Source: Armatimonadota bacterium (GTDB lineage Bacteria; Armatimonadota; SYMT01). Taken from it: DNA of 64,000 nucleotides. Below are positions 44,264 through 64,000 of the stretch, in pieces. The notes beneath the pieces were generated by a model. That model ran no database searches. It had not been told where the DNA came from and saw nothing but the letters and a program-made list of their open reading frames with translations. The stretch is taken from NCBI GenBank assembly GCA_041690135.1, contig JAWLHY010000003.1, positions 384,001 to 448,000 on the forward strand, read 5' to 3'. Positions within the stretch are counted from its first letter, which is position 1. The number at the start of each line of letters is the position of its first letter. The translations under genes and the position numbers were made by a program.

Positions 44264-44506
44264 ATGAAGTGGCTTCTCTCCGGCCTGGTGCTCCTCGTCG
44301 CGGTGGTGCATCAGGACACCTGGTTCTGGACCGACAAGACCCTGGTCTTCGGCTTCCTACCGATCGGGCTGGTTTACCATCTCGGCTACTGCCTGCTGGC
44401 GGCGGCCACGATGGCGGTGCTGGTCAAGTGGGCCTGGCCCAGCGAGCTGGAAGCGGTCGAGAGCATGCACGCCGGCGCCGCTGCCGGGGGTGAGAACCGC
44501 TCATGA
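44264..44506 (+). CDS. Small 2-TM partner of sodium:solute symporter (DUF3311-like)
   Basis: HQD.WFW....LVFGFLP.GL.YH; ATGA overlap with the SSS gene. Confidence 0.85.
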
Positions 44507-46089
44507 TCCCCGCGCTGATCGTTTTCGGCTACCTTGCGGTCGTCCTCTATATCGGCGTCTTCGCGTTCCGCAAGGGAAAGGAATCCGGCGAGGACTTCTT
44601 CCTCGCCAGCCGCGCGCTGGGTCCGGTGGTGTTCCTGCTCTCCCTGTTCGGCACGAACATGACCGCCTTCGCCATCCTCGGCAGCTCCGGTCTCTCCTAC
44701 CGGATCGGGATCGGCGTGTTCGGGCTGATGGCCTCTTCCTCCGCCCTGGTCATCCCGCTTTGCCTATTCTTCATCGGTACCCGCCTCTGGGGCCTGGGGA
44801 AGCGGTTCGGGCACATGACACAGGTCCAGTTCCTGCGCGACCGCTGGGAGTGCGGCGGCATCGGGACCTATCTCTTCGCCATCACCGCCGCGATGCTGGT
44901 GCCGTACATCATCATCGGCGTGATGGGAGGCGGCCAGACCCTGCAGACGATCAGCGCCTACACGGGTCCGGACGGGCAGGTGCGGCACTGGGTGAGCTAC
45001 GAGGCCGGCGGCGCCGTGGTGGCCCTGGTGGTGATGGGCTACGTCTTCTTCGGTGGGATGCGGGGCACCGCCTGGGTGAACACGTTCCAGACCGCCCTCT
45101 TCCTCTGCTTCGGCACGATCGCCTTCCTCCTGATCGCGAAGAACCTGGGCGGGCTCGACGGGATCATGGAAGGGCTGAAGGCGAACCCGAAATCGGCCAC
45201 GCTCTTGAGCCGCGAGAAGATCCCGCCGCGCGAGTTCTTGAGCTACATGTTCATCCCGCTCTCCTCCATCATGTTTCCGCACGTCGCGATCATGTGCATG
45301 ACGGCCGAGAAGGTGAGCCACTTCAAGAAGACCATCATCTTCTACCCGCTCTGCATCGCCGCCATCTGGCTGCCCTCCGTCTTCCTCGGCGTGGTGGGGG
45401 CCGCGCAGTTTCCCGGTCTTCAACCTGGCCAGACGGACAGCATCATCATCCGGCTGCTCACCCAGAACACCGGGGTATTGATCTCCGGAATCCTGGGTGC
45501 GGGGATCATGGCGTGCGTGATGGCTTCGGACAGCCAGATCCTGGCGCTCTGCACCATGTTCACCGAGGACTGCTTCGCCTATTACGGCGGGAAGGAGCGC
45601 TTCGGGGACAAGGCACAGGTCTGGACCGGGCGCATTTTCATCGTGCTGGTGACGACGCTGGCCTACTTGATCGCGCTCTCCCTGAAGGACAAGGCGGGCA
45701 TCTTCGGGCTGGCTATCCGCTTCGCCTTCTCCGGGTTCGCGGCCCTCGCGCCGATCATGCTGGCGGCGCTCTTCTGGAAGCGGAGCACCAAGTGGGGCGC
45801 GCTGGCGGCGGCCCTATGGGTGACGGCCACGGTACTGGGGAGCTGGTACCTCTACGAGATGTCCGCCGGCATCAAGCCGGCGCCGGGATCGGCCCCGGTC
45901 CAGATCTTCCCCGCGCTCGGCGACCTCTTCCTGCGGACCCCCGCCGACGTTACCGTCTACGGTTACCTGCCGGTGATGCCGATGTGCATCGGCTCGGCCC
46001 TCCTGATGGTTGTGGTCTCCCTGGTTACCCCGCCCCCCAGCCAGAAGACCCTCGACAAGTACTTCCCTCCCAAGTCATCGCTCGCTTGA
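44503..46089 (+). CDS. Sodium:solute symporter family transporter
   Basis: [33 protein letters not shown], ~13 TM helices. Confidence 0.93.
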
Positions 46090-46106
46090 TGCATTTCGAC
46101 CGGATT

Positions 46107-46281: not shown

Positions 46282-46326
46282 TGGCTCCCATTCGTGTCGA
46301 AGGCGCTACCTGAGTAAGTTAAAGGC

Positions 46327-47409
46327 ATGTCGAACACTGAACTGAACGAGGCCGCGCGAGCCGCGGCGGATAAGCTGGACGCGCACGTGCGCGAGATCGT
46401 GCAGTGGCACTTCTCTCTGGAGACGGGGTGCCCCTTCTGGCTGAACTGGGCGCAGAAGGCGGGGTGGAACCCGGCCGAAGAGGTGAAGGGGGTGGAGGAC
46501 CTGAAGAAGTTCCCCCACTTCCAGGACGAGTGGCTCCGCGACGAGCAGAATGACGTGTGGGTCCCCCAGGCCTACCGGGGTCGCCCGTATTACATCTTCG
46601 AGACCGGCGGCACCACCGGCATGCCCAAGCAGCGGATCGGCTGGGAAGACCACTTCAAGGACTACGAAGAGTTCTCCGAGACGCTCGATGAGAAGTACTT
46701 CCCGAAAGGCGCCAACTGGCTGATGCTCGGCCCCACCGGTCCCCGGCGGCTCCGCCTCTGCATCGAGCACCTGGCCCACGTGCGCGGCGGCAACTGCTAC
46801 CACGTCGACCTCGACCCGCGCTGGGTGAAGCGCCTCATCGCCGACAAGCAGTTCGACCAGGCCAACAAGTACAAGGAGCACGTGGTCGAGCAGGGCGCCA
46901 CGATCCTCAAGAACCGCAACGTCCAGTGCCTCTTCACCACGCCGAAGCTGCTGGAAGCGCTCGACGAGAAGATCAACGTGCCGGACGCGGGTATCAAGGG
47001 CGTCTTCTGCGGCGGCACCCAGATGACCCCGCAGAACGTGCGCTTCCTGGTGGAAGAAGTGCTCGACAACCGCGCCCAGTTCGTGCCCACCTACGGCAAC
47101 ACCCTGATGGGCCTCGCCTGTAGCCGCCCCCTCACCCGCGAGGATAACTGGAGCATCACCTACTTCGCTCCGCAGCCGCGCGCCTACCTCCGCGTCGTGG
47201 ATCCCAACAACACCGACCGGACCGTGGACTACGGTGAATGGGGAAGGGTCGAGCTCTCCACCCTCACCCGCGAGTTCTTCATGCCGCGGTTCCTGGAACG
47301 CGACGAGGCCGTCCGCCGCGAGCCGTGGGCGCGCTTCCCGTGGGACGGCGTCGGTGAAGTCCGCCCGTTCGGTGCCCTGGAGAAGAAGACGATCGAAGGA
47401 GTCTACTAA
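46327..47409 (+). CDS. Short adenylate-forming protein, GriC/EhpF(LuxE)-like
   Basis: WHFS.ETGCPFW N-terminus, P-loop FETGGTTGMPK, LGPTGP, DLDPRWVK, TYGNTLMG, FLERD; only 360 aa, lacking the small C-terminal ANL subdomain. Confidence 0.78.
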   Translation: MSNTELNEAARAAADKLDAHVREIVQWHFSLETGCPFWLNWAQKAGWNPAEEVKGVEDLKKFPHFQDEWLRDEQNDVWVPQAYRGRPYYIFETGGTTGMPKQRIGWEDHFKDYEEFSETLDEKYFPKGANWLMLGPTGPRRLRLCIEHLAHVRGGNCYHVDLDPRWVKRLIADKQFDQANKYKEHVVEQGATILKNRNVQCLFTTPKLLEALDEKINVPDAGIKGVFCGGTQMTPQNVRFLVEEVLDNRAQFVPTYGNTLMGLACSRPLTREDNWSITYFAPQPRAYLRVVDPNNTDRTVDYGEWGRVELSTLTREFFMPRFLERDEAVRREPWARFPWDGVGEVRPFGALEKKTIEGVY

Positions 47410-47461
47410 AGGCCTCTGCGAAATATTCGGTGGCGTTGCACTCGGGTAGGGTGAACGGACG

Positions 47462-48010: not shown

Positions 48011-48039
48011 GAATCGGATTTCATACGAGGAGGCCCGTA

Positions 48040-49305
48040 ATGAGATGGATCGCTGTTAGTCTGGTGGCCGGCGGCATCGTGGCCGCCTTGCCGGCCCAGG
48101 CCCAGGAGTGGACCCGGTTCCGCGGCCCGAACGGCACGGGGATCAGCGCGGCCAAGGGCATTCCCGTGCAGTTCACGGAAGCGGACTTCAACTGGAAGGT
48201 CAAGCTCCCCGGCGCCGGGCATTCCTCGCCGGTGATCTGGGGGGACAAGGTCTTCATTACCAGTGCCGAGGAGGACCAGGGGAAGCAGCACCTCCTTTGC
48301 CTCCAAGCGTCGGACGGGAAGCAGCTCTGGTCGGTGACGCGGACCTTCGACAAGTACAACCGGCACAAGTTCAACAGCTACGCCTCGGCTACCGCCGCGG
48401 TGGATAAGGACCTGGTCTACGTCCCCTGGTACACGCCGGCGATGGCCAGCCTCATCGCCTACACCCACGACGGCAAAGAAGTCTGGAAGCGCGACCTGGG
48501 CCAGTGGCACGGACAGCATGGGGGGGCCGCCTCTCCGATCCTGTTCGAGAACCTGGTGATCATCCGCCAGGACTGCGACGACATGGGGCCCGAGTCGTTC
48601 GTTTTGGCCATGGATCGGAAGACGGGGCAAGAGAAGTGGCGCTGCCCACGCATTTCCAAGACGGCCTCCTACTCGACGCCGGTGCTGTTCAAGGGGAAGG
48701 ACGGCGCGTCGCAGCTGGTCTTCAACAGCAACGCGCACGGCTTTACGGGGGTCGATCCGCGGACCGGCAAGGTGCTCTGGGAGGTGCCGAACCTCTTCCA
48801 GCAGCGGTGTGTCAGCACCCCGGCGATTGCCGGTGATGCCGTGATCGGAACCGCCGGCAACGGCGGCGGCGCGCGGCAGGGGGTGGCCGTCCGCCCGGAC
48901 GCCGCGAAGGCCAAAGCGGCAGACGTGGTCGCCTACCAGCTTGACCGGCGCGTGACCCCTTACGTGCCGACCCCGCTGGTCTACGGAGAGCACGTCTTCC
49001 TGTGGGGCGACGGCGGAATCCTGAGCTGCGTGAAGGCGGCGAACGGGGAAACCGTCTGGTCGGAGCGGGTCGGCGGAAACTACTTCAGCTCGCCAGTCTG
49101 CATCGACGGTAAACTGTACGGGGTGAACTCGGCGGGAGAGGTCGTGGTGGTGGAAGCTGGTCCCCAGTTCAAACTGCTCGGCCGCAGCCCGCTCGGCGAT
49201 CCCTGTCACTCCACTCCCGCGGTCTCCGGGGGCGCGCTTTACGTACACACCGAGGGCCACCTCATCTCTATCGGCGGCAAGAAAAAAGTCGCCCAGAACC
49301 CGTAA
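48040..49305 (+). CDS. Secreted PQQ-like/BamB-type beta-propeller protein
   Basis: Signal peptide AQA-QEWTRFRGPNG.G, G.SSPVIWGDKVF, repeated G...W docking motifs, SSPV/STP blades; GGAGG RBS. Confidence 0.92.
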   Translation: MRWIAVSLVAGGIVAALPAQAQEWTRFRGPNGTGISAAKGIPVQFTEADFNWKVKLPGAGHSSPVIWGDKVFITSAEEDQGKQHLLCLQASDGKQLWSVTRTFDKYNRHKFNSYASATAAVDKDLVYVPWYTPAMASLIAYTHDGKEVWKRDLGQWHGQHGGAASPILFENLVIIRQDCDDMGPESFVLAMDRKTGQEKWRCPRISKTASYSTPVLFKGKDGASQLVFNSNAHGFTGVDPRTGKVLWEVPNLFQQRCVSTPAIAGDAVIGTAGNGGGARQGVAVRPDAAKAKAADVVAYQLDRRVTPYVPTPLVYGEHVFLWGDGGILSCVKAANGETVWSERVGGNYFSSPVCIDGKLYGVNSAGEVVVVEAGPQFKLLGRSPLGDPCHSTPAVSGGALYVHTEGHLISIGGKKKVAQNP

Positions 49306-49319: not shown

Positions 49320-50738
49320 ATGTCGTTGCCTCACATTCCCGTCCTGCGCCGCGGCCAGGTATACGAAAGTCTCGACCAGGTCGAGCTCAAGAGCGTCCGC
49401 ACCGGCGAGCCGGTGGCGAGCGTGGGCCAGGCTAACGCCGGCCTCATCCGTCGTGACCTCCGCCGGCAGTCCCGCGATGCCTACCGGGGCTACTCGGTCA
49501 ACGATCTCCTGGGGATCTGTGATCGTGCCGGCCGCCTTTTCATGGAAGCCGAGCTGCCCCTGGGCAATGGGTCCCAGACCCCGGAGCAGTATATCGAGTC
49601 GCTCTCGGCGACCAGCGGCCTGCCGTATGCCCTTTGCCGCCGCAACATGGGGAAGATCCACCAGGTCTTCACCGAGATGCCGCTGATCCTCAAGGGCCTC
49701 ACCCGCGGCATGGACCCTAGCGTGATCGACCAGGGGACGGGCGAGCAGAACGGCGTACCGGTGAGCTACTACGCCACCACGGAATCGCTGGGGGTGGTCC
49801 TGCCCAGCAACTCTCCGGGCGTGAACTCCCTCTGGATGCCGGCGATCCCGCTCAAGGTGCCGGTGGTGCTGAAGCCGGGCCGCGAAGAGCCCTGGACGCC
49901 GTTCCGGATCATCCAGGCGTTCATCGCCGCGGGTGCTCCCGCCGAAGCCTTCAGCTTCTACGGGACAGACCATGAGGGCAGCGGCGCCGTGATGGACGCC
50001 TGCAAGCGGGCGCTGATCTTCGGCGATGAGAGCACCGTCCAGCGTTACGCGGGCAATCCCGGCGTGTCGGTTCACGGCCCCGGTCGCAGCAAGATCCTGA
50101 TCGGGAACGACGAGATCGAGCGGTGGCCGGAGTATGTCGGCCTGATCGCGGATTCCATCGCCCTCAACGGTGGCCGGAGCTGCGTCAACGCCTCCGCCGT
50201 GGTCGTGCCGAAGTACGCCGACGAGATCGCCGATGCTGTGGCCCGCAAGCTGGCCGAGTTGAAGCCGGTCTCCTACACCGACGAGACGGCGGTCCTCTCC
50301 GGGTTCGCCAACCCGAAGATGGCGGAGTACATCGATGCCGCCATCGAACAGGATCTGGACGGTGCGGAGGAGGTGACGGCGAAGTACCGGTCCGGCTCCC
50401 GCAAGGTGCTGCTGGACGGCTGCACCTACCTGCAGCCGACGCTGGTCCGGTGTCCCTCCTTCGAACACCCGCTTGCGAACAAGGAGTTCCTGTTCCCGTA
50501 CGCGAGCGTAGTGGAGGTGCCCCAGGAGCGGATGCTGGAACTGATCGGTCCGTCGCTGGTCGTCAGCGGGATCACCAGGGATCCGGAGTTCATCGAAGCG
50601 TTGATCGCCTCGCCGCTGATCGACCGGTTGAACCTCGGGCCGGTGCCCACTCCCGCCGTGCAGTGGGACCAGCCGCATGAGGGAAACCTCTTCGAATTCC
50701 TCTACCGCCGCCGCGCCATCCATCGCGCCAACTGGTAG
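49320..50738 (+). CDS. Aldehyde dehydrogenase-fold acyl reductase, GriD/EhpG/LuxC-like
   Basis: VLPSNSP, LKPGREEP, IFG, catalytic Cys in NGGRSCVNAS, EFLFP; HGPGRSK replaces the ELGGKS general-base motif. Confidence 0.82.
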   Translation: MSLPHIPVLRRGQVYESLDQVELKSVRTGEPVASVGQANAGLIRRDLRRQSRDAYRGYSVNDLLGICDRAGRLFMEAELPLGNGSQTPEQYIESLSATSGLPYALCRRNMGKIHQVFTEMPLILKGLTRGMDPSVIDQGTGEQNGVPVSYYATTESLGVVLPSNSPGVNSLWMPAIPLKVPVVLKPGREEPWTPFRIIQAFIAAGAPAEAFSFYGTDHEGSGAVMDACKRALIFGDESTVQRYAGNPGVSVHGPGRSKILIGNDEIERWPEYVGLIADSIALNGGRSCVNASAVVVPKYADEIADAVARKLAELKPVSYTDETAVLSGFANPKMAEYIDAAIEQDLDGAEEVTAKYRSGSRKVLLDGCTYLQPTLVRCPSFEHPLANKEFLFPYASVVEVPQERMLELIGPSLVVSGITRDPEFIEALIASPLIDRLNLGPVPTPAVQWDQPHEGNLFEFLYRRRAIHRANW

Positions 50739-50920: not shown

Positions 50921-50964
50921 GGCCGTCCCCGTTCTCTGAATACAGTGGTAGCAGCGTTTTGTTG

Positions 50965-52131
50965 ATGATCGGATTCGACTACCAGCCCCGGACCCGACTG
51001 ATCTTCGGCGCCAACTCGGTAGACAGGCTGGGCGAGTTGGCCCGAGAGCTCCCTTCCCGCCGGGTGCTGGTGGTCACCGACCCCGGCATCGCGGCGGCCG
51101 GACATCTCGACCGGGCCCGCCGCGCGCTCGAAGGCGCCGGCCTGGAGGTCGTCGTGTACGACCAGGTGCGGGAGAACCCGACCACCCTGGACGTGGACCG
51201 CTGCCTGGAGGTAGCGCGTGCGGCCGACATCGACGGCATCATCGGCTTCGGGGGCGGCAGCAGCATCGATACCGCCAAGGGCTGTAACTTCCTGCTGACC
51301 AACGGCGGGAGGATGCGGGACTACTGGGGCGTGGGCAAGGCCCCGCACCCCATGCTGCCGCTGATCGCCGTGCCCACCACTTCCGGTACCGGCAGCGAAT
51401 GCCAGTCGTTCGCCCTGATCGCGGACGAGGAGACCCACCAGAAGATGGCCTGCGGCGACCCGAAAGCAGCCGCGCGGGTCGCTCTCCTCGACCCCACCCT
51501 GACGCTTTCCCAGCCGCGCGCCGTAACCGCCTGCACCGGCATCGATGCCATCGCGCACGCGGTCGAGACCGCCGTGACGAAGAAGCGGAATGAACTTTCC
51601 CTGCTCTACTCGCGGGAGGCGTTCCGGCTGACGATCCAAAACTTCACGCGCGTCCTCGAGGCGCCGGACAACCTGGAAGCGCGCTCCGCCATGCTCCTCG
51701 GCGCAGCCTATGCCGGCACCGCCATCGAGAACAGCATGCTGGGCGCGGCCCACTCTGCCGCCAACCCGCTGACCGCCCACTACGGCATCATCCACGGCCA
51801 GGCGGTGGGGATGATGCTCCCGCACGTGGTCCGCTTCAATGCGGCCGAATCGCCCGCCCGCGAGCTGTACCAGGAACTCGCCCTGGCCGCCGGCCTCATA
51901 GCATCGACCGCCCCCCTGGGATCGGGCGCGGAAGCCATCGCGCGGAAACTCGAAGAACTCCTTGCCGCCGCGGGAATGCCCCTCTCGCCCTCCGGTCATG
52001 GCATGACGCCCGCTGCGGTGACGGATCTCGCGCCCGAGGCCGCCGCCCAGTGGACCGCCACCTTCAATCCCCGCCCCATCACCGCGCCCGACTTCGAGCG
52101 CCTCTACGCGTCCGCCCTGGCCGCCGGCTAA
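50965..52131 (+). CDS. Iron-containing (family III) alcohol dehydrogenase
   Basis: VVTD.G, ENP, GGGSSIDTAK, PTTSGTGSE, DAIAHAVE, GAAHS, HGQA. Confidence 0.95.
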   Translation: MIGFDYQPRTRLIFGANSVDRLGELARELPSRRVLVVTDPGIAAAGHLDRARRALEGAGLEVVVYDQVRENPTTLDVDRCLEVARAADIDGIIGFGGGSSIDTAKGCNFLLTNGGRMRDYWGVGKAPHPMLPLIAVPTTSGTGSECQSFALIADEETHQKMACGDPKAAARVALLDPTLTLSQPRAVTACTGIDAIAHAVETAVTKKRNELSLLYSREAFRLTIQNFTRVLEAPDNLEARSAMLLGAAYAGTAIENSMLGAAHSAANPLTAHYGIIHGQAVGMMLPHVVRFNAAESPARELYQELALAAGLIASTAPLGSGAEAIARKLEELLAAAGMPLSPSGHGMTPAAVTDLAPEAAAQWTATFNPRPITAPDFERLYASALAAG

Positions 52132-52426
52132 ACCCCCAATCCCCAACCCCGATCCATCTCCCAACGCAACCACAAAGAACCCTGGCACTTCGTGGGCGTC
52201 ATAAGAAGCGGGCTTTCCTCGCGGGCGACTGCATTTCCGGGTGCCTTCCCGCCTTCGATCTGCGTAGTAGTAAGGGGTGCCGGGTCTGAATTCTCGTTCG
52301 AACGACCTTTTACCCGTAAGAGATATCAGGAAGCAAGTGCGGCACTCGGAGCGGCGCCGAATGGGTAGGGCGGTCGCTCTTACCGCACCCCGCGCATCCC
52401 GTCGCTTCTCTGGCAGGAGATTCGTT

Positions 52427-53560: not shown

Positions 53561-53579
53561 TCCCCGGGAGTAATGATTG

Positions 53580-54914: not shown

Positions 54915-55566
54915 TCCGGGTTTGACCGGGCCACAGGGGCTGGGCGATGCCGTGGCCGGGGCGCGCCAGGCGGTGGAGAGTGGGGTCGTTTCCCGGCCCC
55001 CCTTCGATCCGCGCAGCGTGCCGATGGGGCTGGCCATCAGCGACCTGCTCTATCCGCTCGGCGAGTTCTACGCGGAAGCGGGACGTCCCCTGCCGCCGGT
55101 CGTGCAGGTGCCGGGGGAACAGGTGCCGGAGCCTTATCGCCAGCTCCTGGTGCACGCCAGCGACATGACGCCCACGCTGGAGCGGTTCCACGGCGACACG
55201 ATCCACCTGCGGCCGCTGCAGCGGCGCCTGGTGGACGACACCATGTGCCGGCAGGTAGTGCTGACACTGGATGAAAGCCTCCGGCCCGTGGAGTATGGCG
55301 CCATCGCCATCCACTGCCGGCACTTCCCGGAGGAAGCGCGCCAGTTGATCGTCGAGAGCCGCTGCCCGCTCGGCACAATCCTCAACCGTTACCGGATCCC
55401 GCACTTCAGCCGCCCGCGCGCCTTCTTCCGGGTCACCGCCGACGACTTCATGAACGAGGCGCTCGGCTTGACCGGCCGCCAGGAGCTCTACGGCCGCCGC
55501 AATGTTCTGCTCGCCCCTGGGGATGTTGTACTGGCCGACGTACTCGAAATACTCCCTCCCGGATAA
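54907..55566 (+). CDS. Chorismate pyruvate-lyase-like (UbiC/DUF98/UTRA fold) protein
   Basis: LL....MT..LE, R.V.L......V.YG, PLG.IL, YGRR..L......L..V.E pattern of UbiC-fold proteins; 8-bp overlap with the radical SAM stop codon. Confidence 0.65.
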   Translation: MPDPGLTGPQGLGDAVAGARQAVESGVVSRPPFDPRSVPMGLAISDLLYPLGEFYAEAGRPLPPVVQVPGEQVPEPYRQLLVHASDMTPTLERFHGDTIHLRPLQRRLVDDTMCRQVVLTLDESLRPVEYGAIAIHCRHFPEEARQLIVESRCPLGTILNRYRIPHFSRPRAFFRVTADDFMNEALGLTGRQELYGRRNVLLAPGDVVLADVLEILPPG

Positions 55567-55724: not shown

Positions 55725-57053
55725 ATGCGCATCATTCAACTGACTCCCGGCACCGGTAGCTTCTACTGCGGCACCTGCCTGCGCGACAACGCCCTGGTGA
55801 CGGAGCTGCGCCGCCGCGGGCACGATGCGATGATGGTGCCGCTCTACCTGCCGCCCACGCTGGATGAAGCGCCTGCCTCCGCGGAGAGTCCGCTTTTCTA
55901 CGGCGGGATCAACGTCTACCTCCAGCATAAGTCCGGCCTGTTCCGCAAGACGCCGCGGTGGGTGGACCGCCTGCTGGATGCGCCGGGCGTGCTGAAGAAG
56001 GCGGCCGGCCGCGCGGGGATGACGGCCGCGAGCGAGCTTGCCGACCTGACGCTCTCGACACTCCGCGGCGAAGAGGGGAACCAGCTCAAGGAGCTGGACC
56101 GCCTGGCCGAGTGGCTGGCGACAGAGGGCCGGCCGGACGTCGTCTGCCTCTCCAATATCCTCCTGATCGGGCTCGCGCGCCGGATCAAGCAGCTCACCGG
56201 GGCGCGCGTCCTCTGCACGCTCCAGGGCGAGGACTCGTTCATCGACAGCTTTCCGGAGCCGGACCGGCAGGCCTCCTGGGATCTCCTGGCCGAACGCGCG
56301 GCCGACGTCGACCTGTTCGTGGCCGTGAGCCACTACTATGCGGACGTGATGACCCGCCGCGCGCGCCTTCCCGCGGACCGGGTGCACGTGGTGTACAACG
56401 GGATCTCGCTGGACGGCTACAATCCGGCTCCGGCCCCGCCCGACCCGCCGGTGCTGGGCTACCTCTCCCGGATGTTCCACGCGAAGGGTCTGGGCACACT
56501 GGTGGAGGCCTACCTCCTGCTGCGGGCGAGTGGTCGCGTCCCGGGCCTCAAGCTGCGGGTCGCCGGCACGAAGCTTTCCGTGGACGACGCCTACCTCGGA
56601 ATGCTGCGGGCGCGCCTGGCGGAGAAAGGGGCGGAAGGGGACGTGGAGTTCCTGCCCAATATCAGCCGGGAGGAGAAGATCGACTTCCTGCGCGGCCTTT
56701 CCGTCCTCTCCGTGCCGACCACCTACGGCGAGTCGTTCGGCCTTTACCTGGTCGAGGCGTGGGCCGCGGGGGTGCCGGTCGTGCAGCCGCGCCACGCCGC
56801 TTTCCCCGAACTCCTGGAAGCCACCGGTGGGGGATTGCTTTGCGAGCCGGACGACGCGCAGTCGCTGGCGACTTGCCTCGAACAGGTGCTCACCGACCCC
56901 AGGCGGGCACGCGAGATGGGCCTCCGAGCCCGTCGGGTCGTCGAGGAGCGCTTCAGCGTTCAGGCCATGGCCGAGGGCGTGGAACGCGTCCTCACCGGCC
57001 CCCCCTCTGAGGCGCCGCTGTTTGCAGAGCCCGTCACTGCCATGCGAGAATAG
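55725..57053 (+). CDS. Glycosyltransferase family 4 (GT-B) with N-terminal CxxC
   Basis: RRGHD, VVYNGI, SR....KG, ESFGLYLVEA (E-x7-E), GVPVV; N-terminal PGTGSFYCGTCLRDN. Confidence 0.92.
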   Translation: MRIIQLTPGTGSFYCGTCLRDNALVTELRRRGHDAMMVPLYLPPTLDEAPASAESPLFYGGINVYLQHKSGLFRKTPRWVDRLLDAPGVLKKAAGRAGMTAASELADLTLSTLRGEEGNQLKELDRLAEWLATEGRPDVVCLSNILLIGLARRIKQLTGARVLCTLQGEDSFIDSFPEPDRQASWDLLAERAADVDLFVAVSHYYADVMTRRARLPADRVHVVYNGISLDGYNPAPAPPDPPVLGYLSRMFHAKGLGTLVEAYLLLRASGRVPGLKLRVAGTKLSVDDAYLGMLRARLAEKGAEGDVEFLPNISREEKIDFLRGLSVLSVPTTYGESFGLYLVEAWAAGVPVVQPRHAAFPELLEATGGGLLCEPDDAQSLATCLEQVLTDPRRAREMGLRARRVVEERFSVQAMAEGVERVLTGPPSEAPLFAEPVTAMRE

Positions 57054-57070: not shown

Positions 57071-57319
57071 ATGGAAGTAATCGAGGACTCCAGAGCCCAG
57101 GAAGTCTACGAGCGGCACGTGCGCACGCTCAGCCCCACCGCGCAACTGCGCCTGATGGCTTTAACGGCTCAGGGCCTGGCGGAGAGTGAGGGCGGAGAGG
57201 CACCCCCGCGCCGGAGTATCATGGAGCTTTGCGGTTTAGGATCCGAAATCTGGCGCGGCGTTGATGCTCAACAGTACGTGAACGAGCTTCGAAGCGAGTG
57301 GGACGACCAGCCGCAATGA
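57071..57319 (+). CDS. Antitoxin of a PIN-domain TA pair
   Basis: 82 aa, RSIMEL.GLG.EIW.GVDAQ.YV.ELR.EWD; ATGA overlap with the toxin gene. Confidence 0.85.
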   Translation: MEVIEDSRAQEVYERHVRTLSPTAQLRLMALTAQGLAESEGGEAPPRRSIMELCGLGSEIWRGVDAQQYVNELRSEWDDQPQ

Positions 57320-57762
57320 AGGTCGATGAGGCGCTTCGCGGCGTGTCGAGAATAGCACTGGACACGGCGCCCGTCATCTACTTCATTGAGAGGCACCCAG
57401 CTTACATTACACGGGTCACCGAGGTGTTTCAAGAGATCGATCGGGGGCACCTGGAAGGGTACACTTCTGCTGTCAGCCTGTGCGAGGTTCTGGTTCACCC
57501 GATCCGGCAGGGCAATAACACCCTGGCCCACACCTACCAGGAATTACTCCTCGGCAGTGCAAATTTCGTAACCGCCCCCATTGACTCCCGGGTCGCCGCC
57601 AAAGGTGCTGAACTGCGGGGGCGTTACAACCTACGCACGCCGGACGCCTTACAGATCGCCGTAGCCCTAGAGTTCGGGTGCCAGGCGTTTCTAACGAATG
57701 ACACCGGTTTCCGCAGGGTGGATGACCTAAGGGTGTTGGTGTTGGATGACTTGCAGGTGTAG
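57316..57762 (+). CDS. vapC: VapC-family PIN-domain toxin
   Basis: IALDTAPVIY, S..E.LV.P, LR..Y.LRTPDALQIA.A, FLTND. Confidence 0.92.
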   Translation: MKVDEALRGVSRIALDTAPVIYFIERHPAYITRVTEVFQEIDRGHLEGYTSAVSLCEVLVHPIRQGNNTLAHTYQELLLGSANFVTAPIDSRVAAKGAELRGRYNLRTPDALQIAVALEFGCQAFLTNDTGFRRVDDLRVLVLDDLQV

Positions 57763-57807: not shown

Positions 57808-58263
57808 ATGGCATATGAATACAGAGTAACGATTCGCGTTCAGTTCGCCGACACGGACCTCGCGGGGATCGTTCACTTTTCGAATTTCTTCCGCTACATG
57901 GAGACCGCCGAGCACGCCTTCTTCCGCTCGCTCGGCACCTCGATCCACGCAGAGCATGAGGGCCGCACCATCGGCTGGCCGCGGGTGAAGGCGACTTGCG
58001 AGTACCGGGCCCCGCTCAAGTTCGAGGACGAGGTGGAGGTCCATCTCCTCGTGCGGGAGAAGAAATCCAAGTCGTTGACCTACGACTTCATCTTCCGCAA
58101 GGTCAACGGCGATACTCCGGTGGAAGTCGCGCGGGGTTCGGTCACGGCCGTGTGCGTGACGCTGGACGAGCAGACCCGCCGGATGAAGGCAACCGCTATT
58201 CCCGACGCCATCTATAACCAGATCGAAGTGGCGCCGCACGAATTATTAGAAGGAGCAGCTTGA
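57808..58263 (+). CDS. Hotdog-fold acyl-CoA thioesterase (4HBT/YbgC family)
   Basis: RVQFADTD.AGIVHFSNFFRYME, C.YRAPLKFED. Confidence 0.92.
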   Translation: MAYEYRVTIRVQFADTDLAGIVHFSNFFRYMETAEHAFFRSLGTSIHAEHEGRTIGWPRVKATCEYRAPLKFEDEVEVHLLVREKKSKSLTYDFIFRKVNGDTPVEVARGSVTAVCVTLDEQTRRMKATAIPDAIYNQIEVAPHELLEGAA

Positions 58264-58823
58264 TGGGAGGCGCGCAGCAGCAGTCGGGCATGGCCTGGCT
58301 GGCATTCGCCCTGATGACGGTGGCGTCCTGGGGGGTTTACGGGGTCTTCCTGCACACCGGCCAGATGGCCATGCAGGACCCGGTCAATGGCCGGTACAAG
58401 GCGTTCCTCTTCGTGGGGATCGCCTACTTCCTCACGGCCGTGCTCGCTCCCCTGATCCTGCTGATGATGCGGGGGGCTTCGTGGGATATGCCCGCCCGGG
58501 GGATGACCTGGTCCCTGATCGCCGGGATCGTGGGGGCGATCGGCGCGTTCTGCGTGCTGCTCGCCTTCGGCGCGGGCGGGAAGCCGCCGTACGTAATGTC
58601 GATCGTCTTCGCCGGCGCGCCTATCGTCAACGCCGTCGTCTCCCTGGCGATGCACCCGCCGCACGGAGGCTGGTCGACGATCAAGCCGCAGTTCGTGCTC
58701 GGCATGGTGCTGGCCGCCGTCGGCGGTCTGCTGGTCACCCTCTACAAGCCGGCCGATAAGCCCGCGGCCAAGCCGGGAGCGCCGCCGGCCCACGCCGTGG
58801 TTTCGGAAGGGAAATCTGCGTGA
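58260..58823 (+). CDS. Single-domain EamA/DMT-like membrane protein (5 TM)
   Basis: WLAFALMTVASWGVYG, SLIAG..GAIG, VMSIVF.GAPIVN; coupled to both neighbours. Confidence 0.75.
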   Translation: MMGGAQQQSGMAWLAFALMTVASWGVYGVFLHTGQMAMQDPVNGRYKAFLFVGIAYFLTAVLAPLILLMMRGASWDMPARGMTWSLIAGIVGAIGAFCVLLAFGAGGKPPYVMSIVFAGAPIVNAVVSLAMHPPHGGWSTIKPQFVLGMVLAAVGGLLVTLYKPADKPAAKPGAPPAHAVVSEGKSA

Positions 58824-60115
58824 GTGCTGCGGAGTATCCCGACCGCAGCCGCCTGGAAGCCGAACAGCTCCGGCTGCTGCGTGGGATGATCGCGGAGCTG
58901 GTTCCCGCGAACCGCTTCTACAGCCGTAAATGGGAGGAGGCCGGGATCGCCGGCCTCCCCGCCTCCCTGGAGGAGTTCTCGCGCCTCTATCCGCTGACCC
59001 GGAAAGAAGAACTGGTGGAAGACCAGCGCGCGCAGCCTCCCTACGGTACCAATCTCACCTATCCGCTGGAGCGGTACACCCGCTTCCACCAGACCAGCGG
59101 CACCACCGGGCAGCCCCTGCGGTGGCTCGATACCAACGCCACCTGGAGCTGGATGGTCGATAACTGGGTCGAGGTGTTCCGTGCGTCCGGGGTGACCCAT
59201 CACGACCGGATCTTCTTTGCCTTTTCCTTCGGTCCGTTCCTCGGCTTCTGGACCGCTTTCGAAGCAGGGCTCCGCCTGGAAGCACTCTGTCTTCCCGGTG
59301 GTGGCATGAGCACCCAGGCGCGACTCCGGGCGATCCTCGATAACCAGGTCACCGCCCTGTGCTGCACGCCGACCTACGCGATCCGCCTGGGAGAAGAGGC
59401 GGCCGCGGAGGGCGTCGACCTCGGCCGGAGCATGGTGCGTACCATTGTGGTGGCCGGCGAGCCGGGGGCGGGTATTCCCGCCACGCGCGCCCGGATCGAG
59501 CGTCTCTGGCCGGGAGCGCGGCTGTGCGACCACCACGGCATGACGGAAGTCGGCCCGGTGACCTTCGAGTGTCCCGCCCGGCCCGGCGTGCTCCATGTGA
59601 TCGAGCGGAGCTTCATCGCCGAGGTGATCGATCCGGCGACCGGATCTCCCGTCCTTCCCGGAGAGATCGGCGAGCTCGTGCTGACGAACCTGGGGCGGGT
59701 CGGCTCCCCGTTGGTGCGGTACTGCACCGGCGACCAGGTCCGCCGTTCCATCTCCGAGCCGTGCGCCTGCGGACGCAGTGACTTCGCACTCGATGGCGGG
59801 ATCATGGGCCGGACCGACGACATGGTGGTGATCCGGGGCGTGAACGTTTACCCGACGGCGCTGGAGGCCATCGTGCGGAAATTCGAGCGGATCGCGGAGT
59901 ACCGCGCGGAGATCCATAGCGAGGGACCCATGCCGGAACTGCGAGTTCTGCTGGAACCGGTACCCGACTGTGGAGACGTAACCGCATTGGGAGCCGAAGT
60001 CGAGGCCGCCCTCCGCACGGCATTCAACCTCCGCACGCCGGTGTCCGTGGTTAGCCCGGGGTCGCTGCCCCGGTTCGAGCTCAAGGCCAAACGCTGGGTC
60101 CGCGTCGATCGTTGA
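58820..60115 (+). CDS. Phenylacetate-CoA ligase (PaaK)-like aryl-acid adenylating enzyme
   Basis: TSGTTG.P, TPTYA, AGEPG, HGMTEVG, RY.TGD, GRTDDM..IRGVNVYP, C-terminal KAKR. Confidence 0.92.
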   Translation: MSAAEYPDRSRLEAEQLRLLRGMIAELVPANRFYSRKWEEAGIAGLPASLEEFSRLYPLTRKEELVEDQRAQPPYGTNLTYPLERYTRFHQTSGTTGQPLRWLDTNATWSWMVDNWVEVFRASGVTHHDRIFFAFSFGPFLGFWTAFEAGLRLEALCLPGGGMSTQARLRAILDNQVTALCCTPTYAIRLGEEAAAEGVDLGRSMVRTIVVAGEPGAGIPATRARIERLWPGARLCDHHGMTEVGPVTFECPARPGVLHVIERSFIAEVIDPATGSPVLPGEIGELVLTNLGRVGSPLVRYCTGDQVRRSISEPCACGRSDFALDGGIMGRTDDMVVIRGVNVYPTALEAIVRKFERIAEYRAEIHSEGPMPELRVLLEPVPDCGDVTALGAEVEAALRTAFNLRTPVSVVSPGSLPRFELKAKRWVRVDR

Positions 60116-60121
60116 CGACCG

Positions 60122-60871
60122 GTGCGAGACCCCGAAGGAAACAGGAAAACGATCGTGCCCGAGTCCCTCCACAAACCCCTCCTGCAATTGAGCGGAATCG
60201 GCAAGAGCTACTCCGCCACGGGCGACGCGGCCGAGACGACCGTGCTGCGCGGCCTGGACCTGGAGCTGGCGCCCGGCGAAGCGGTGGTGATCATCGGTCC
60301 TTCCGGCTCCGGTAAGAGCACCCTGCTGAACATCCTGGGCACGCTCGACCGCCCCACCGCGGGGCAGATCCGGCTGGACGGGAAGGACCTCACCGGCCTG
60401 GACGAGAAGGCGCTGGCCGAGCTGCGCAGCCGGGAGATCGGGTTCGTTTTCCAGCTTCACCACCTGCTGCCGCAGTGCACCGTGCTGGAGAATGTGCTGG
60501 TGCCGACCCTCGCCGCCGGCGCGGTCCAGCGGAAGGAAAAGGCGGAAGCGCGGGCGCGACGTCTCCTGGAACGTGTCGGCCTGGGAGAGCGTCTTTCGCA
60601 CCGGCCCGGACAGCTTTCCGGTGGGGAGCGCCAGCGAGTGGCGGTGGTCCGCGCGCTCATCAATGAGCCGAAGCTGGTGCTGGCGGATGAACCCACCGGC
60701 TCTCTCGACCGGGCCTCCGCGGAAGTGCTCGCCGACCTGTTCGTGGCCCTCAACCAGGAGGAGGGGGTCAGCCTGGTGGTGGTGACGCACTCGATGGGCC
60801 TCGCGCGCCGCATGTCCCGCGTGCTCGAACTGCGCGACGGCGCCCTCGTGCCGGCAGAGCTACCGCAATGA
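60122..60871 (+). CDS. LolD/MacB-type ABC ATPase
   Basis: GPSGSGKSTLL, IGFVFQ.HHLL, LSGGERQRVA, LADEPTGSLD, VTH. Start may be GTG 60155. Confidence 0.95.
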   Translation: MRDPEGNRKTIVPESLHKPLLQLSGIGKSYSATGDAAETTVLRGLDLELAPGEAVVIIGPSGSGKSTLLNILGTLDRPTAGQIRLDGKDLTGLDEKALAELRSREIGFVFQLHHLLPQCTVLENVLVPTLAAGAVQRKEKAEARARRLLERVGLGERLSHRPGQLSGGERQRVAVVRALINEPKLVLADEPTGSLDRASAEVLADLFVALNQEEGVSLVVVTHSMGLARRMSRVLELRDGALVPAELPQ

Positions 60872-63800
60872 CTTTCCGCCAGCTCGTTCTCAGCGGTCTG
60901 CGCTTCCACTGGCGCTCCCACCTCGGGGTGCTGCTGGGCGCCATCCTCAGCACGGCCATCCTGGTCGGCGCGCTGGCGGTGGGGGACTCCGTCCGCTACA
61001 GCCTTCGCCGGATGGCGCTCCTGCGCCTGGGCGATACCCACCTGGCCCTCCACACCCAGGGACGGTTCTTCCGCACGCAACTGGCGGACGAGGTCTCCCA
61101 GGAAGTGGGCGCGCCGGTAGCGCCGCTGCTCATTCTGCGGGGCACGGCTTCCACCAACGGGGGCGAAACCCGGGCGAATCGGGTACAGGTGGTCGGCATC
61201 GACGACCGCTTCTGGAAGCTGGGGGCCACTGCGCCCTTGCTGCCCTCGGAAGGGGAGCCGGGCGTGGTGCTGAACCGGCGCCTCGCCGCGAAGCTGGGTG
61301 TGGAGGTCGGCGGCGAGGTGCTGCTGCGGGTCGACAAGCCGAGCCTGATGTCGCGAGACGCGCCGCTCTCCAGCATCGAGGACGCCACCTTTTCCGTTCA
61401 CCTGCCGGTGGCGGCCATCGCCGGCGACGAGCAGTTCGGGCGCTTCGGCCTGGAAGCGAACCAACTCCCCCCGTTCAACGCCTTCGTGCCCGCAAGTCTC
61501 CTGCAGGAGAACACGGACCTGAAGGGGCGGGTGAATGCGCTACTGGTGGGCCAGGACTCCGCCGGAAAGCTCACGCAGGCGGCGGCGAACGGCGCGCTCG
61601 GGAAGCACTGGAAGCTCGCCGACGCCAGTCTGCAGGTCCGGGAGCTGCCGGGCGCCGTGGAACTCCGGACCGACCGGGTTTTCGTCGACGAGGCGACGTC
61701 CAAGGCGGCTCTCTCGGCTCCCGGGGCGCGGGGCGTGCTCACCTATTTCGTGAACGAGCTGCGGCTGGGGTCGCGCGCGGCTCCGTACTCGATCGTGGCC
61801 GCCATGCAGGGCGGTCCCGTACCGGCCGGCCTTCGGGATAACGAGGTTGTCATCAACGACTGGCTCGCGGAGAACCTCGGGGCGAAGGTGGGGGACGAGC
61901 TCACCGTTACCTACTTCGTGGTCGGCGCGATGCGCCGCCTGGAAGAGCGCAAGACCCCCTTCCGGGTCGCGCGCATCGTCCCGATTGCCGGGGCGGCCGC
62001 GGACCGCGAGTTGATGCCGAACTTCCCTGGGGTGGCCGACAGCGAGAACTGCCGCGACTGGCGGCCCGGCATCCCAATCAACCTCAAGAAGATCCGCGAT
62101 GCGGACGAGACCTACTGGGACGCCCATCGCGGCACGCCCAAGGCGTTCATCACGCTGGCCGCCGGCCAGAAGATGTGGAACAACCGGTTCGGCAATCTCA
62201 CGGCCGTCCGCTACGATCCCCCCGCGCAGTCCCGCGCCTCGGTGGAAACGTCCCTCCGGGAGGCGCTCAATCCCGCCTCCATCGGTCTCTTCTTCCAGCC
62301 GGTCCGCAATCAGGCGCTGCAGGCCAGCTCCCAGGCCCTCGATTTCGGCCAGCTCTTCCTCGGCTTCAGCTTCTTCCTGATCGTGGCCGCCCTGCTGCTC
62401 ACGGCGCTCCTGTTCGCCTTCGGGGTAGAGCAGCGCTCGGAAGAGGTCGGCACCCTCCTCGCCGTGGGCTTCCAGCCGCGCCACGTCCAGCGGATGCTGC
62501 TGCTGGAGGGGGCGTCCCTGGCACTGGTGGCCGGGGGCATCGGCGCGTTCCTGGGAGTCTTCTACACCCAGGCCGTCGTGCAGGGCCTCTCCACCGTCTG
62601 GAGCGATGCGGTCGCCCAGTCCGAGCTCCGCTTCCATGCGGAGCCGCTCACCCTGGCGGGCGGGGCGATCGCCGGGTTCCTCGTGGCGCTCTTCTCCATC
62701 TGGCTGGTGGTCCGCAAGCAGGCCCGGGTCTCCGCGCGCGAACTGCTGGCTGCGGGCGCCGAGTCCGAGGCGCGCCTCTTCGGGGGCGGAGTTCCAACTC
62801 GGAAAGGGCTCCCCGGCGTGAAGACCGCGCTGGTCGGCATCCTCGGAGCGGTCGCCCTGAGTATCGCCGGAATCCTGGGCAGTCACGAGCACGCCGCCGG
62901 AATCTTCTTTGGGGCGGGGGGCCTGCTGCTGATCGGCGGCCTGGGCGCTTGCCGGGCGCTGCTCGCCCGCCTCGAACGGGGCGGACTGCGCGGGCCGCTC
63001 ACCCTCTCCGGGCTGGGCATGCGGAACAGCGTGCGCCGCCGCGGACGCAGCCTGGCCGTCATCAGCCTGCTGGCTTCCGGCAGTTTCCTGGTCGTCTCCA
63101 TCGGCGCCAGCCGCCACGATCCGCACGAGGGGGCGCTCAAGCGCTCTTCCGGGACCGGCGGGTTCGCCCTCTATGCCGAAACCACGCTGCCCGTCCATCA
63201 CGACCTGAACAGCACCGAGGGACAGGACGTGTACGGGCTGGATCCCAAAGAGTTGGGGAACGCGCGCATCCTGCCGCTGCGCCTGCGCGAGGGGGATGAG
63301 GCGAGCTGCCTTAACCTGAACCGCGCCCAGACCCCGCGAGTGCTGGGGGTGCAGCCGGCGGTCTTTGCCCAGGCCCACGCCTTCACCTTCACCAGCCTCA
63401 TCGACAAAGACGCCGCGCGCGATCCGTGGAGCGTGCTCACGCGTCCGGACCCCAGCGGCGCCGTGCCCGCGGTGGGGGACATGAACACCGTCGTCTGGGG
63501 CCTGGGGAAGGGAGTCGGCGCGACGCTCCCGATGACCGATGAAAGCGGCCGCCCCTTCGAGATCCGCATCGTCGGCATCCTGGCGAACTCCGTCCTCCAG
63601 GGGAGCCTGCTGATTGCGGAAGACCGCTTCATCGAGCGGTTCCCTTCCCAGAGCGGCTACCAGGTGTTCCTGATCGATCCGCCCGCCGCCGGCAGCAACG
63701 TGGAAGTGAAGGCCGTGGCGGAAGAGCTCTCTCGCAGCCTGGAAGACGCCGGGATGGACGTCACCCCCACGCCGGAGCGCCTGGCGGCCTTCAACTCCGT

Positions 63801-64000
63801 GGAGAACACCTATCTCTCCATCTTCGCGATCCTGGGCGGCCTGGGGATGATCCTCGGCAGCATCGGCCTTGGCGTGGTGGTCCTCCGCCACGTGCTGGAG
63901 CGCCGCGGCGAGTTGGGCCTTCTCCGGGCCGTAGGGTTCCGGTCGCAGGCTCTCCAGTGGCTCGTCTTCAGCGAGCACTCCCTGCTGCTGGTCCTCGGGT
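60868..64000 (+). CDS. Large double-FtsX-domain ABC permease (>1040 aa); 3' end outside the window
   Basis: Absent from the ORF track. ATG 60868 (ATGA overlap): MTFRQLVLSGLRFHWRSHLGVLLG...VGDSVR; EQRSEEVGTLLAVGF; second repeat NTYLSIF...LERRGELGLLRAVGF; no in-frame stop seen. Confidence 0.93.
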   Translation, partial: MTFRQLVLSGLRFHWRSHLGVLLGAILSTAILVGALAVGDSVRYSLRRMALLRLGDTHLALHTQGRFFRTQLADEVSQEVGAPVAPLLILRGTASTNGGETRANRVQVVGIDDRFWKLGATAPLLPSEGEPGVVLNRRLAAKLGVEVGGEVLLRVDKPSLMSRDAPLSSIEDATFSVHLPVAAIAGDEQFGRFGLEANQLPPFNAFVPASLLQENTDLKGRVNALLVGQDSAGKLTQAAANGALGKHWKLADASLQVRELPGAVELRTDRVFVDEATSKAALSAPGARGVLTYFVNELRLGSRAAPYSIVAAMQGGPVPAGLRDNEVVINDWLAENLGAKVGDELTVTYFVVGAMRRLEERKTPFRVARIVPIAGAAADRELMPNFPGVADSENCRDWRPGIPINLKKIRDADETYWDAHRGTPKAFITLAAGQKMWNNRFGNLTAVRYDPPAQSRASVETSLREALNPASIGLFFQPVRNQALQASSQALDFGQLFLGFSFFLIVAALLLTALLFAFGVEQRSEEVGTLLAVGFQPRHVQRMLLLEGASLALVAGGIGAFLGVFYTQAVVQGLSTVWSDAVAQSELRFHAEPLTLAGGAIAGFLVALFSIWLVVRKQARVSARELLAAGAESEARLFGGGVPTRKGLPGVKTALVGILGAVALSIAGILGSHEHAAGIFFGAGGLLLIGGLGACRALLARLERGGLRGPLTLSGLGMRNSVRRRGRSLAVISLLASGSFLVVSIGASRHDPHEGALKRSSGTGGFALYAETTLPVHHDLNSTEGQDVYGLDPKELGNARILPLRLREGDEASCLNLNRAQTPRVLGVQPAVFAQAHAFTFTSLIDKDAARDPWSVLTRPDPSGAVPAVGDMNTVVWGLGKGVGATLPMTDESGRPFEIRIVGILANSVLQGSLLIAEDRFIERFPSQSGYQVFLIDPPAAGSNVEVKAVAEELSRSLEDAGMDVTPTPERLAAFNSVENTYLSIFAILGGLGMILGSIGLGVVVLRHVLERRGELGLLRAVGFRSQALQWLVFSEHSLLLVLG

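Follow-up and report, generated by a model that had tools for sequence, protein, structure and literature searches.

A conserved pair of radical SAM and chorismate-lyase-like genes lies at the centre of a layered orphan gene cluster in an Armatimonadota bacterium

Do the genes at one end of a 64,000-nucleotide (nt) stretch of an Armatimonadota genome (contig JAWLHY010000003.1, positions 384,001 to 448,000, hereafter the window) form one biosynthetic cluster, and what lies at its centre? The genes in question run on the plus strand from position 44264 to the window end and are numbered g01 to g17, with all positions given as those of the window. An earlier note, made from the sequence alone, had described 14 core genes on one strand that together reduce an aryl acid to an alcohol and export a modified product. 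We find a real orphan cluster that is centred on a HemN-like radical S-adenosylmethionine (SAM) enzyme (g08) and a UbiC-like protein (g09) and usually includes a halogenase, not an acid reductase. The pathway suggested in the note is partly supported. The cluster is layered: its core is fixed, the downstream set recurs frequently and the upstream set rarely.

The clustering is not due to chance, and we conclude this because of the synteny in other genomes, not from the window by itself. By genome scan, relatives of g09 are encoded in 551 of ~185,000 species genomes. The best 80 of these 551 loci were compared, including as much as 10 kb of flanking sequence in either direction. Genes were counted as present where tblastn of the window proteins gave at least 35% identity (40% for the propellers, 50% for the ATPase) and a coverage of at least 0.4 on the same strand, and a locus was informative where its contig reaches far enough to show the gene in question. 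Judged by record title, the sample comprises 58 Verrucomicrobiota-type, 6 Armatimonadota-type and 5 Planctomycetota loci and 11 other or mislabelled bins, and these counts are rough. The radical SAM gene is next to the g09 relative in all 68 informative loci, and a gene for a secreted beta-propeller (g07) lies upstream of it in 58 of 62.

Longer blocks recur as well. A Phycisphaeraceae locus (L046) has 12 of the 15 window genes other than a toxin-antitoxin pair, all colinear, in the order DUF3311, symporter, EhpF-like, iron-containing alcohol dehydrogenase (Fe-ADH), propeller, radical SAM, UbiC-like, GT4, thioesterase, DMT-like, ligase, ATPase. The block g03 to g10 is present in an Armatimonadota locus (L020), and g08 to g17 in a Fimbriimonadales locus (L047). 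Six Verrucomicrobiota loci span propeller to FtsX permease, and the colinear blocks include L025, L027, L050, L054 and L063. L046, L020 and L047 represent three clades at phylum level. Co-occurrence in other genomes had been named beforehand as the test that could refute the cluster, and it was found in L046, L020 and L047.

The genes do not behave as the single unit of 14 that was first claimed. Their conservation is uneven and falls into three layers (Table 1). Acid reduction, which had been taken as the central theme, is the least conserved part (EhpF-like 3/36, EhpG-like 1/42 and Fe-ADH 4/51). A quick tree of the radical SAM protein contains 59 proteins, the window's and those of 58 of 67 locus open reading frames (ORFs), with the 9 outside 430-480 amino acids (aa) left out. 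It groups mostly by phylum. The window protein falls in an Armatimonadota clade beside L020 (SH-aLRT 99), and the L046 protein is in a different, strongly supported clade. Eight bins (L008, L017, L026, L060, L019, L027, L029 and L063) carry titles such as Klebsiella, Chitinophaga pinensis and Akkermansia muciniphila, yet are placed inside Verrucomicrobiota radical SAM clades; they look mislabelled.

The conserved heart of the cluster is g08, with a mean column identity of 68% across the family alignment. Its translation shows the CxxxCxxC motif, and a GGGTP motif is also present. Among PDB sequences, it matches HemN (1olt, E 1.2e-35) and the methyltransferase NocN (E 3.5e-24). The structure model has a pLDDT (predicted local distance difference test) of 86.5, and Foldseek aligns it to HemN 1olt with TM scores of 0.77/0.79 (E 8e-29).

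The fixed partner, g09, was recognized by its fold. Its model (pLDDT 89.7) gives AF1396, a DUF98 protein, as the best Foldseek match (TM 0.76-0.78, E 2e-7), followed by UTRA domains and then by E. coli UbiC (1g1b, TM 0.53, E 3e-4). AF1396 is also matched by a profile built from 30 members of the family (E 2.7e-4). All 30 members keep R115 and E214 of g09, which are aligned with an R and an E of AF1396; these two may correspond to the product-binding Arg and the C-terminal Glu described for UbiC structures. In the hhalign alignment with UbiC (probability 16.7%), DMT..E, R-x-V-x-L, PLG and GRR are aligned motif to motif, and the Glu is outside that alignment. At E<=1e-30, a library of 1.8 billion proteins contains 565 representatives of the family. 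Fused forms of g09 were not found among proteins of 385-2000 aa, which is weak evidence. A predicted complex of g08 with residues 40-219 of g09 scored 0.01 against a mark of 0.32, a result that counts neither way on binding. The start of g09 at 54907 is uncertain: its relatives start ~40 residues later, and an in-frame ATG at 55024 would replace the 8-nt overlap with g08 by a gap of ~110 nt.

A companion of the core in most related loci is absent from the window. All-against-all clustering of the locus ORFs gave one extra family, of ~428 aa, that is encoded directly after g09 and has no window counterpart. It matches Pfam Trp_halogenase (E 5.5e-35), and its top NCBIfam match is CmlS (E 5e-63). 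The 55 members keep GxGxxG, a Lys near residue 80 and GWFWHIP; GxGxxG, a Lys at ~80 and a WxWxIP-type motif are marks of flavin-dependent halogenases. Among the 66 loci with at least 1.5 kb downstream, the halogenase gene is adjacent to the g09 relative in 47, elsewhere in the locus in 5 and lacking in 14. The usual product of the related loci is probably halogenated, because the gene sits right after g09 in most relatives. No homologue was found in the window (best tblastn E 1.7), which stops inside g17. In L047 (18400-19644, minus strand) the halogenase gene comes right after the FtsX permease gene, on the opposite strand and not beside the UbiC-like gene; the window's contig could likewise have one beyond position 64000. 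Genes of GDP-mannose 4,6-dehydratase/epimerase type follow the halogenase in 8 loci, which hints at a deoxy-sugar donor for the pathway. Two such genes are present after the halogenase, with no GT4 gene nearby, in L071 (11979-13989) and in the 7 further loci.

Table 1. Genes predicted from position 44264 to the window end, with the share of informative loci in which each was found
Gene	Predicted product	Position	Strand	Evidence	Informative loci with the gene
g01	Small membrane protein, DUF3311-like, symporter partner	44264..44506	+	Pfam DUF3311 E 1.1e-6	
g02	Sodium:solute symporter family transporter	44503..46089	+	Pfam SSF E 1.7e-38	2/32
g03	EhpF-like truncated ANL adenylase, without C-terminal domain	46327..47409	+	PDB EhpF 3l2k/3hgu E 1.6e-47	3/36
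g04	Secreted PQQ-like/BamB-like beta-propeller 1	48040..49305	+	Pfam PQQ_2 E 2.2e-24	1/37
g05	EhpG/GriD-like aldehyde-dehydrogenase-fold reductase	49320..50738	+	Pfam Aldedh E 1.5e-12	1/42
g06	Iron-containing alcohol dehydrogenase	50959..52131	+	Pfam Fe-ADH E 4.1e-52 and ADH_Fe_C	4/51
g07	Secreted PQQ-like/BamB-like beta-propeller 2	52421..53560	+	Pfam Beta-prop_ACSF4 E 2.3e-91, PQQ_2 E 2.9e-59	58/62 (upstream of radical SAM gene)
g08	HemN-like radical SAM enzyme	53577..54914	+	Pfam Radical_SAM and HemN_C	68/68 (next to g09)
g09	Chorismate-lyase-like (UbiC/DUF98-fold) protein	54907..55566	+	Structure model, Foldseek, profiles	
g10	GT4-family glycosyltransferase	55725..57053	+	Pfam Glycos_transf_1 E 1.6e-25 and Glyco_transf_4	35/61 (downstream)
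g11	Putative antitoxin, 82 aa, no family match	57071..57319	+	Overlaps PIN ORF by 22 nt	
g12	PIN-domain toxin	57298..57762	+	PIN E 7.7e-17	
g13	4HBT/YbgC-type hotdog thioesterase	57808..58263	+	Pfam 4HBT_2 E 8.3e-15	23/50
g14	Five-helix DMT-like (EamA-like half) membrane protein	58260..58823	+	Five hydrophobic segments	12/45
g15	PaaK-family acyl/aryl-CoA ligase, full length	58820..60115	+	Pfam AMP-binding and AMP-binding_C_2	12/42
g16	LolD/MacB-type ABC ATPase	60122..60871	+	Pfam ABC_tran E 3.2e-37	7/37
g17	Duplicated FtsX permease with MacB-like periplasmic domain	60868..64000, 3' end beyond window	+	Pfam FtsX in two stretches and MacB_PCD	5/33

The 17 ORFs have the high third-position GC of real genes, as seen in an ORF listing with a third-position GC screen. 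The gene content and the single strand of the earlier description stand; overlooked in it was the PIN toxin-antitoxin pair between the GT4 and thioesterase genes. Protein families were assigned by Pfam, NCBIfam, PDB sequence and ESM Atlas searches, and the families named earlier hold at family level. The labels DUF3311 for g01 and LolD for g16 need qualification: g01 scores 29 bits, below the gathering score of 30, and g16 scores 267.8 bits with the LolD model against a cut-off of 307.75 and is LolD-like, not called LolD. The five quoted start/stop overlaps are all real on the sequence, at 44503 (ATGA, 4 nt), 54907 (8 nt, with the uncertain start of g09), 58260 (TTGA), 58820 (GTGA) and 60868 (ATGA). 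The short spacings within the window are -4, -8, -4, -4, 6 and -4 nt. No polyketide synthase (PKS), nonribosomal peptide synthetase (NRPS) or phosphopantetheine-binding domains were found in the 17 ORFs and 2 small intergenic ORFs scanned, in agreement with the earlier report of no PKS, NRPS or carrier protein. An Rfam scan of 43000-64000 at E<=0.1 gave zero matches. The longest ORF of g07 begins at 52277, and g17, the last ORF, runs past the window end.

The upstream neighbours are unrelated and comprise a Liv-type ABC importer, a phosphodiesterase, Uma2, GcvH and lipoate ligase; the left border near 44264 is therefore sound. These unrelated flanking genes (~32.5-44 kb) are likewise on the plus strand, and the same-strand run is thus nothing special.

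The upstream set, g01 to g06, contains predicted functions in uptake and carboxylate reduction. g01 and g02 overlap by 4 nt, and homologues of g01 precede a symporter gene in L024 and L046. The g02 protein is a probable carboxylate importer. It scores under all NCBIfam equivalog cut-offs and has 29% identity (E 2e-44) to a symporter of Halalkalicoccus plasmid 2 that precedes an EhpF/EhpG-like pair. Residues 15-360 of g03 (360 aa) align to residues 18-366 of EhpF, i.e. end to end, and its tblastn matches include the AMP-binding gene of aromatic-acid clusters of Pantoea, Burkholderia and Streptomyces. The place of the symporter pair is taken in L020 by an IS200-type transposase gene (340-786), immediately 5' of the EhpF-like gene. 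The propeller g04 has a hydrophobic N-terminal segment (residues 1-19) and an orthologue in L020 only (48% identity). The 630-nt gap after g03 (47410-48039) contains two ORFs, 47430-47642 and 47681-48010, that have no Pfam match. A conserved element in this gap was considered and dropped; the L020 gap, of about equal length, aligns only at the flanking genes.

The PDB matches of g05 are ordinary aldehyde dehydrogenases (ALDHs) only. A tblastn search of plasmids leads to the ALDH gene directly 3' of the EhpF gene on Pantoea agglomerans pASB05p2 (27.5%, E 5e-23). Adjacent EhpF/EhpG-like pairs occur in Pantoea, Burkholderia, Streptomyces and Halalkalicoccus, and in the window and L020 one propeller gene splits g03 from g05. 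Cys288 of g05 is invariant in 4 of 4 aligned proteins, and the position of the canonical ALDH general-base Glu is H, H, Q and R. We take the Cys to be the residue that forms the thioester and the Glu to be the one needed for hydrolysis, as in the ALDH mechanism. An active site predicted in this way fits reduction of an acyl-enzyme rather than oxidation of an aldehyde. The top NCBIfam match of g06 is ErcA (280 bits against a cut-off of 550), and an Fe-ADH gene of this type adjoins that of propeller 2 in L020, L024, L046 and L057.

The EhpF-like family is very large and conserved: 8000 of 8000 scored candidates have E<=1e-30, with 70-94% identity for the best 120. The g09 family has 548 matches at E<=1e-3. 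Most EhpF-like genes therefore cannot adjoin g09 relatives. Plasmid 2 of Halalkalicoccus jeotgali (L084, 6508-10566) encodes a symporter, an EhpF-like protein annotated as hypothetical and an ALDH-family protein in a row, with an IclR regulator nearby and without any other cluster genes. The trio of symporter, EhpF and EhpG for uptake and reduction appears to be a self-standing module across domains. The conversion of aryl acid to benzyl alcohol is plausibly a local addition and not the cluster's theme, and its substrate is possibly non-aromatic.

Downstream of the core, g10 has generic GT4 matches only in PDB and NCBIfam. The next two genes, g11 and g12, look like a VapBC-type toxin-antitoxin pair, and no homologues of them were found in any of the 80 related loci. 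From GT4 to thioesterase the median gap is 17 nt (27 loci), against 755 nt in the window. The pair is an insertion between these two genes and is outside the pathway. The top PDB chain for g13 is 5wh9, named 4-hydroxybenzoyl-CoA thioesterase (E 6.1e-17). The g14 protein has no Pfam match; in the ESM Atlas its closest clusters carry the name DMT superfamily permease (score 0.98), and it looks like a DMT-superfamily half-transporter. Both ANL domains are present in g15, with PDB matches to 2-hydroxyisobutyryl-CoA synthetase (E 1.9e-53) and PaaK (E 5.1e-49). It scores under the PaaK equivalog cut-offs (200 against 700 and 175.9 against 646) and is assigned to the PaaK family in the wider sense.

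The last two genes, g16 and g17, resemble parts of a pump. By hydropathy, g17 has a transmembrane (TM) segment at residues 20-38, a loop of ~460 residues, TM segments at 502-747, a second loop and a TM segment at 988-1006. Its orthologues are ~1100 aa in L025, L027, L047, L050, L054 and L063. The equivalog scores of the pair are below cut-off for lolCE (27.9 against 362) and MacB (220.9 against 966). For MacB/LolCDE-type pumps the substrate is found at the outer face of the inner membrane; one pump of this kind, DevBCA, is an exporter of glycolipids. The resemblance to these systems lies in the LolD-like ATPase and in the MacB periplasmic core domain and FtsX repeats of g17. The difference is that g17 is one duplicated chain of ~1100 aa with two large loops, and no membrane-fusion or outer-membrane partner gene was seen at the locus.

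Does any known system have this combination of genes? A literature search found no characterised pathway with this gene set, as the earlier note had supposed, and comparison with MIBiG was outside its scope. The closest precedent is the unverified baaAB pair. The genes baaA and baaB of the marine Planctomycetales strain 10988 are described as proposed, genetically unverified genes for 3,5-dibromo-p-anisic acid, and the needed methyltransferase was not found by the authors, according to the accessible text (10.1101/723874). That locus likewise has a chorismate-lyase-like gene beside a flavin-dependent halogenase gene, on one strand and in the PVC group, as that text describes it (10.1101/723874), and the same adjacency occurs in 47 of 66 relatives here. 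It differs from the window, where no halogenase is visible, and the two are likened by description, not by sequence comparison. Pairs of chorismate lyase and flavin-dependent halogenase are also represented by the bmp5/6 type. The accessible part of the paper makes no mention of a radical SAM enzyme, HemN, glycosyltransferase, ligase or pump (10.1101/723874).

Another partial parallel is the start of the mycobacterial pathway to phenolic glycolipids and p-hydroxybenzoic acid derivatives (p-HBAD), which, in the accessible text, uses the chorismate pyruvate-lyase Rv2949c and the ligase FadD22 (PMC7205293). It shares with our proposal a DUF98-type lyase that yields p-hydroxybenzoate, adenylation, glycosylation of the phenol and an envelope destination, as far as that source goes (PMC7205293). 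In contrast, the window has no PKS or carrier protein, its ligase is of the PaaK and not the FadD type, and it also encodes a radical SAM enzyme and a MacB-type pump. The fold, domain pair and CxxxCxxC and GGGTP motifs of g08 are those of HemN and class C HemN-like enzymes (HemN 1olt; NocN 9p2u; C10P, PMC6050322). Unlike these, g08 has a fixed UbiC-like partner and scores under the curated cut-offs. Two further systems were considered and rejected. A weak FlxY match of g15 hints at an aryl-polyene/flexirubin cluster, but genes for a ketosynthase or a carrier protein are missing. A QHNDH-type ribosomal peptide system fits poorly, since conserved small ORFs were not seen and g08 is HemN-like, not SPASM-type.

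The reductase genes resemble EhpF/EhpG from the phenazine (D-alanylgriseoluteic acid) cluster of Pantoea agglomerans, and g03 and g05 share the design of a short adenylase with a Cys-only ALDH. EhpF/EhpG, and GriC/GriD of Streptomyces griseus, are said to convert a carboxylate to an aldehyde via an acyl-adenylate, as reportedly proposed by Bera and colleagues in 2010 and by Suzuki and colleagues in 2007. The window genes differ in that identity is 27-37%, a propeller gene lies between them, phenazine genes are lacking, and a symporter and an Fe-ADH are linked.

What might the locus make? We predict that the locus makes and exports an aromatic compound derived from chorismate and that it consists of three layers, conserved to different degrees; we give this reading an even chance of being right. 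Its substrates, step order and product we infer from the gene families, the folds of g08 and g09 and the observed synteny. g09 would release a hydroxybenzoate-type acid from chorismate. g08 may then perform radical chemistry on the ring or side chain of this acid or of its thioester, for which C-methylation is the commonest precedent. A halogenase would add chlorine or bromine in most lineages. The g15 ligase may make the aryl-CoA, which the g13 thioesterase would release or proof-read, and the g10 GT4 may attach a sugar. Transport to the outer face of the inner membrane could be the task of g14 and g16/g17, with the secreted propellers as possible recipients of the product. In the window lineage, g02 may import the same or a related acid and g03, g05 and g06 may reduce it to aldehyde and alcohol. 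The aromatic chemistry of the earlier note (4-hydroxybenzoate, aldehyde, benzyl alcohol, methylation, glycosylation and envelope delivery) likewise keeps the standing of a proposal.

A bolder version can be offered tentatively, as a possibility that we would sooner doubt than accept. Hundreds of Verrucomicrobiota, Planctomycetota and Armatimonadota species may use the HemN-like radical SAM enzyme and its obligate chorismate-lyase-like partner to make a new and usually halogenated aromatic unit, which would be glycosylated and passed by the MacB-type pump to the secreted propellers. The product would then belong to a class of its own, as an envelope aryl-glycoconjugate or a periplasmic cofactor and not as an ordinary antibiotic, and the window lineage would add a reductase that takes it to a benzyl alcohol.

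Several results weigh against the layered locus for one aromatic compound. g08 scores under every curated NCBIfam HemN-family cut-off (HemN 179.8 against 325, HemW 168.9 against 205, HutW/ChuW 174.6 against 400, HemZ 148.3 against 321, STM4012 173.6 against 380), and the type of reaction of this putative enzyme cannot be read from its sequence. g09 has no Pfam or NCBIfam match, even at E<=1, and was missed by the chorismate-lyase models; its fold is common to the non-enzymatic ligand-binding UTRA domains of GntR regulators, and the hhalign comparison of its family with E. coli UbiC is weak (E 0.0015, probability 16.7%). L024 and L046 (both Phycisphaeraceae) have g03-like and Fe-ADH genes without an EhpG-like gene. 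The synteny rests on the best 80 of 551 loci. Within the window there are intergenic gaps of 237, 630, 220, 289 and 158 nt, and a scan of 44000-63999 found 0 promoter-like sites and no intergenic terminator-like sites; the 8 terminator-like sites seen, against 9.8 expected, are all intragenic or on the opposite strand and are uninformative on operon structure.

The remaining adverse points would also suit two or three adjoining independent systems (g01 to g06 for uptake and reduction of a carboxylate, the core g07 to g09, and g10 to g17 for export of an envelope glycoconjugate or lipid) that have no common substrate, the main rival reading, which we consider unlikely and still worth serious thought. 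The upstream set is rare beside the core (EhpF-like genes near g09 in just 3 of 36 loci) and common elsewhere, its trio occurs alone on the Halalkalicoccus plasmid, and EhpF-like proteins form a family at least ten times the size of that of g09. Of the 33 loci whose downstream flank is a complete 10 kb, 12 have no GT4; in the closest relative, L020, g13 to g17 are missing from the 10 kb downstream; and gaps of 220-630 nt separate the units. Independence is harder to reconcile with the order from symporter to ATPase, which recurs in a Phycisphaeraceae locus from a different radical SAM clade, with the GT4 gene that follows the core in 35 of 61 loci, and with the median of 17 nt between GT4 and thioesterase genes.

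We think it improbable that the core builds the ring of a redox cofactor, quinone-type or other, for the membrane or the propellers, with 4-hydroxybenzoate from the UbiC-like protein and methylation by the radical SAM enzyme, and not a secondary metabolite. No UbiA-type prenyltransferase, UbiD/UbiX decarboxylase or UbiE-type methyltransferase is among the families present in at least 5 of the 80 loci, and we know of no quinone pathway that includes a GT4, a thioesterase or a MacB-type pump. The tight conservation of the core is in its favour, as is the ubiC-like gene beside a radical SAM methyltransferase gene that the accessible text reports in a methyl-plastoquinone cluster of Leptospirillum (10.1101/2024.07.27.605408). 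The propellers match PQQ-type repeat families, but they are ~380 aa and BamB-like, not dehydrogenases of 550-600 aa; likewise the flavoprotein of the relatives also resembles QhpG and LodB, which are flavoproteins of quinone-cofactor maturation, but it has the halogenase motif WxWxIP. A very improbable alternative is catabolism or detoxification of imported aromatic acids and alcohols, in which symporter, CoA ligase, thioesterase, ALDH and ADH would work in the oxidative direction. PaaK-family ligases with hotdog thioesterases, and ALDH-ADH pairs, are typical of aromatic catabolism, and a symporter opens the locus. However, g05 lacks the general-base Glu for aldehyde oxidation and pairs with an adenylase, no ring-cleavage, ring-reduction or beta-oxidation genes were found in the ORFs scanned, and the glycosyltransferase, the exporter and the halogenase of the relatives point to synthesis.

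Soil and water are rich in Verrucomicrobiota, Planctomycetota and Armatimonadota, and the small-molecule chemistry of these phyla is almost unexplored. In all informative loci the g09 family is tied to a single uncharacterised radical SAM enzyme, and knowledge of the product would reveal what reaction a new branch of HemN-like enzymes carries out. The cluster might account for a widespread source of natural halogenated phenolics, and it could provide the methyl-transfer step that is missing from the only planctomycete pathway proposed to date. The two-protein carboxylate reductase with its Cys-only ALDH may be of interest as a biocatalyst.

Two further features lie upstream of the cluster. A gene for a putative restriction endonuclease of the Uma2 family (42033-42752) is located between Liv-type ABC ATPase genes and gcvH. 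The region 24000-30000 has a lower GC content, 0.60-0.63 against about 0.65. It encodes an SH3-domain ORF (24334-25350), ORFs with no family and an immunity-type protein of the SMI1/KNR4 (SUKH-1) family (27114-27854), and it may be a toxin-immunity islet.

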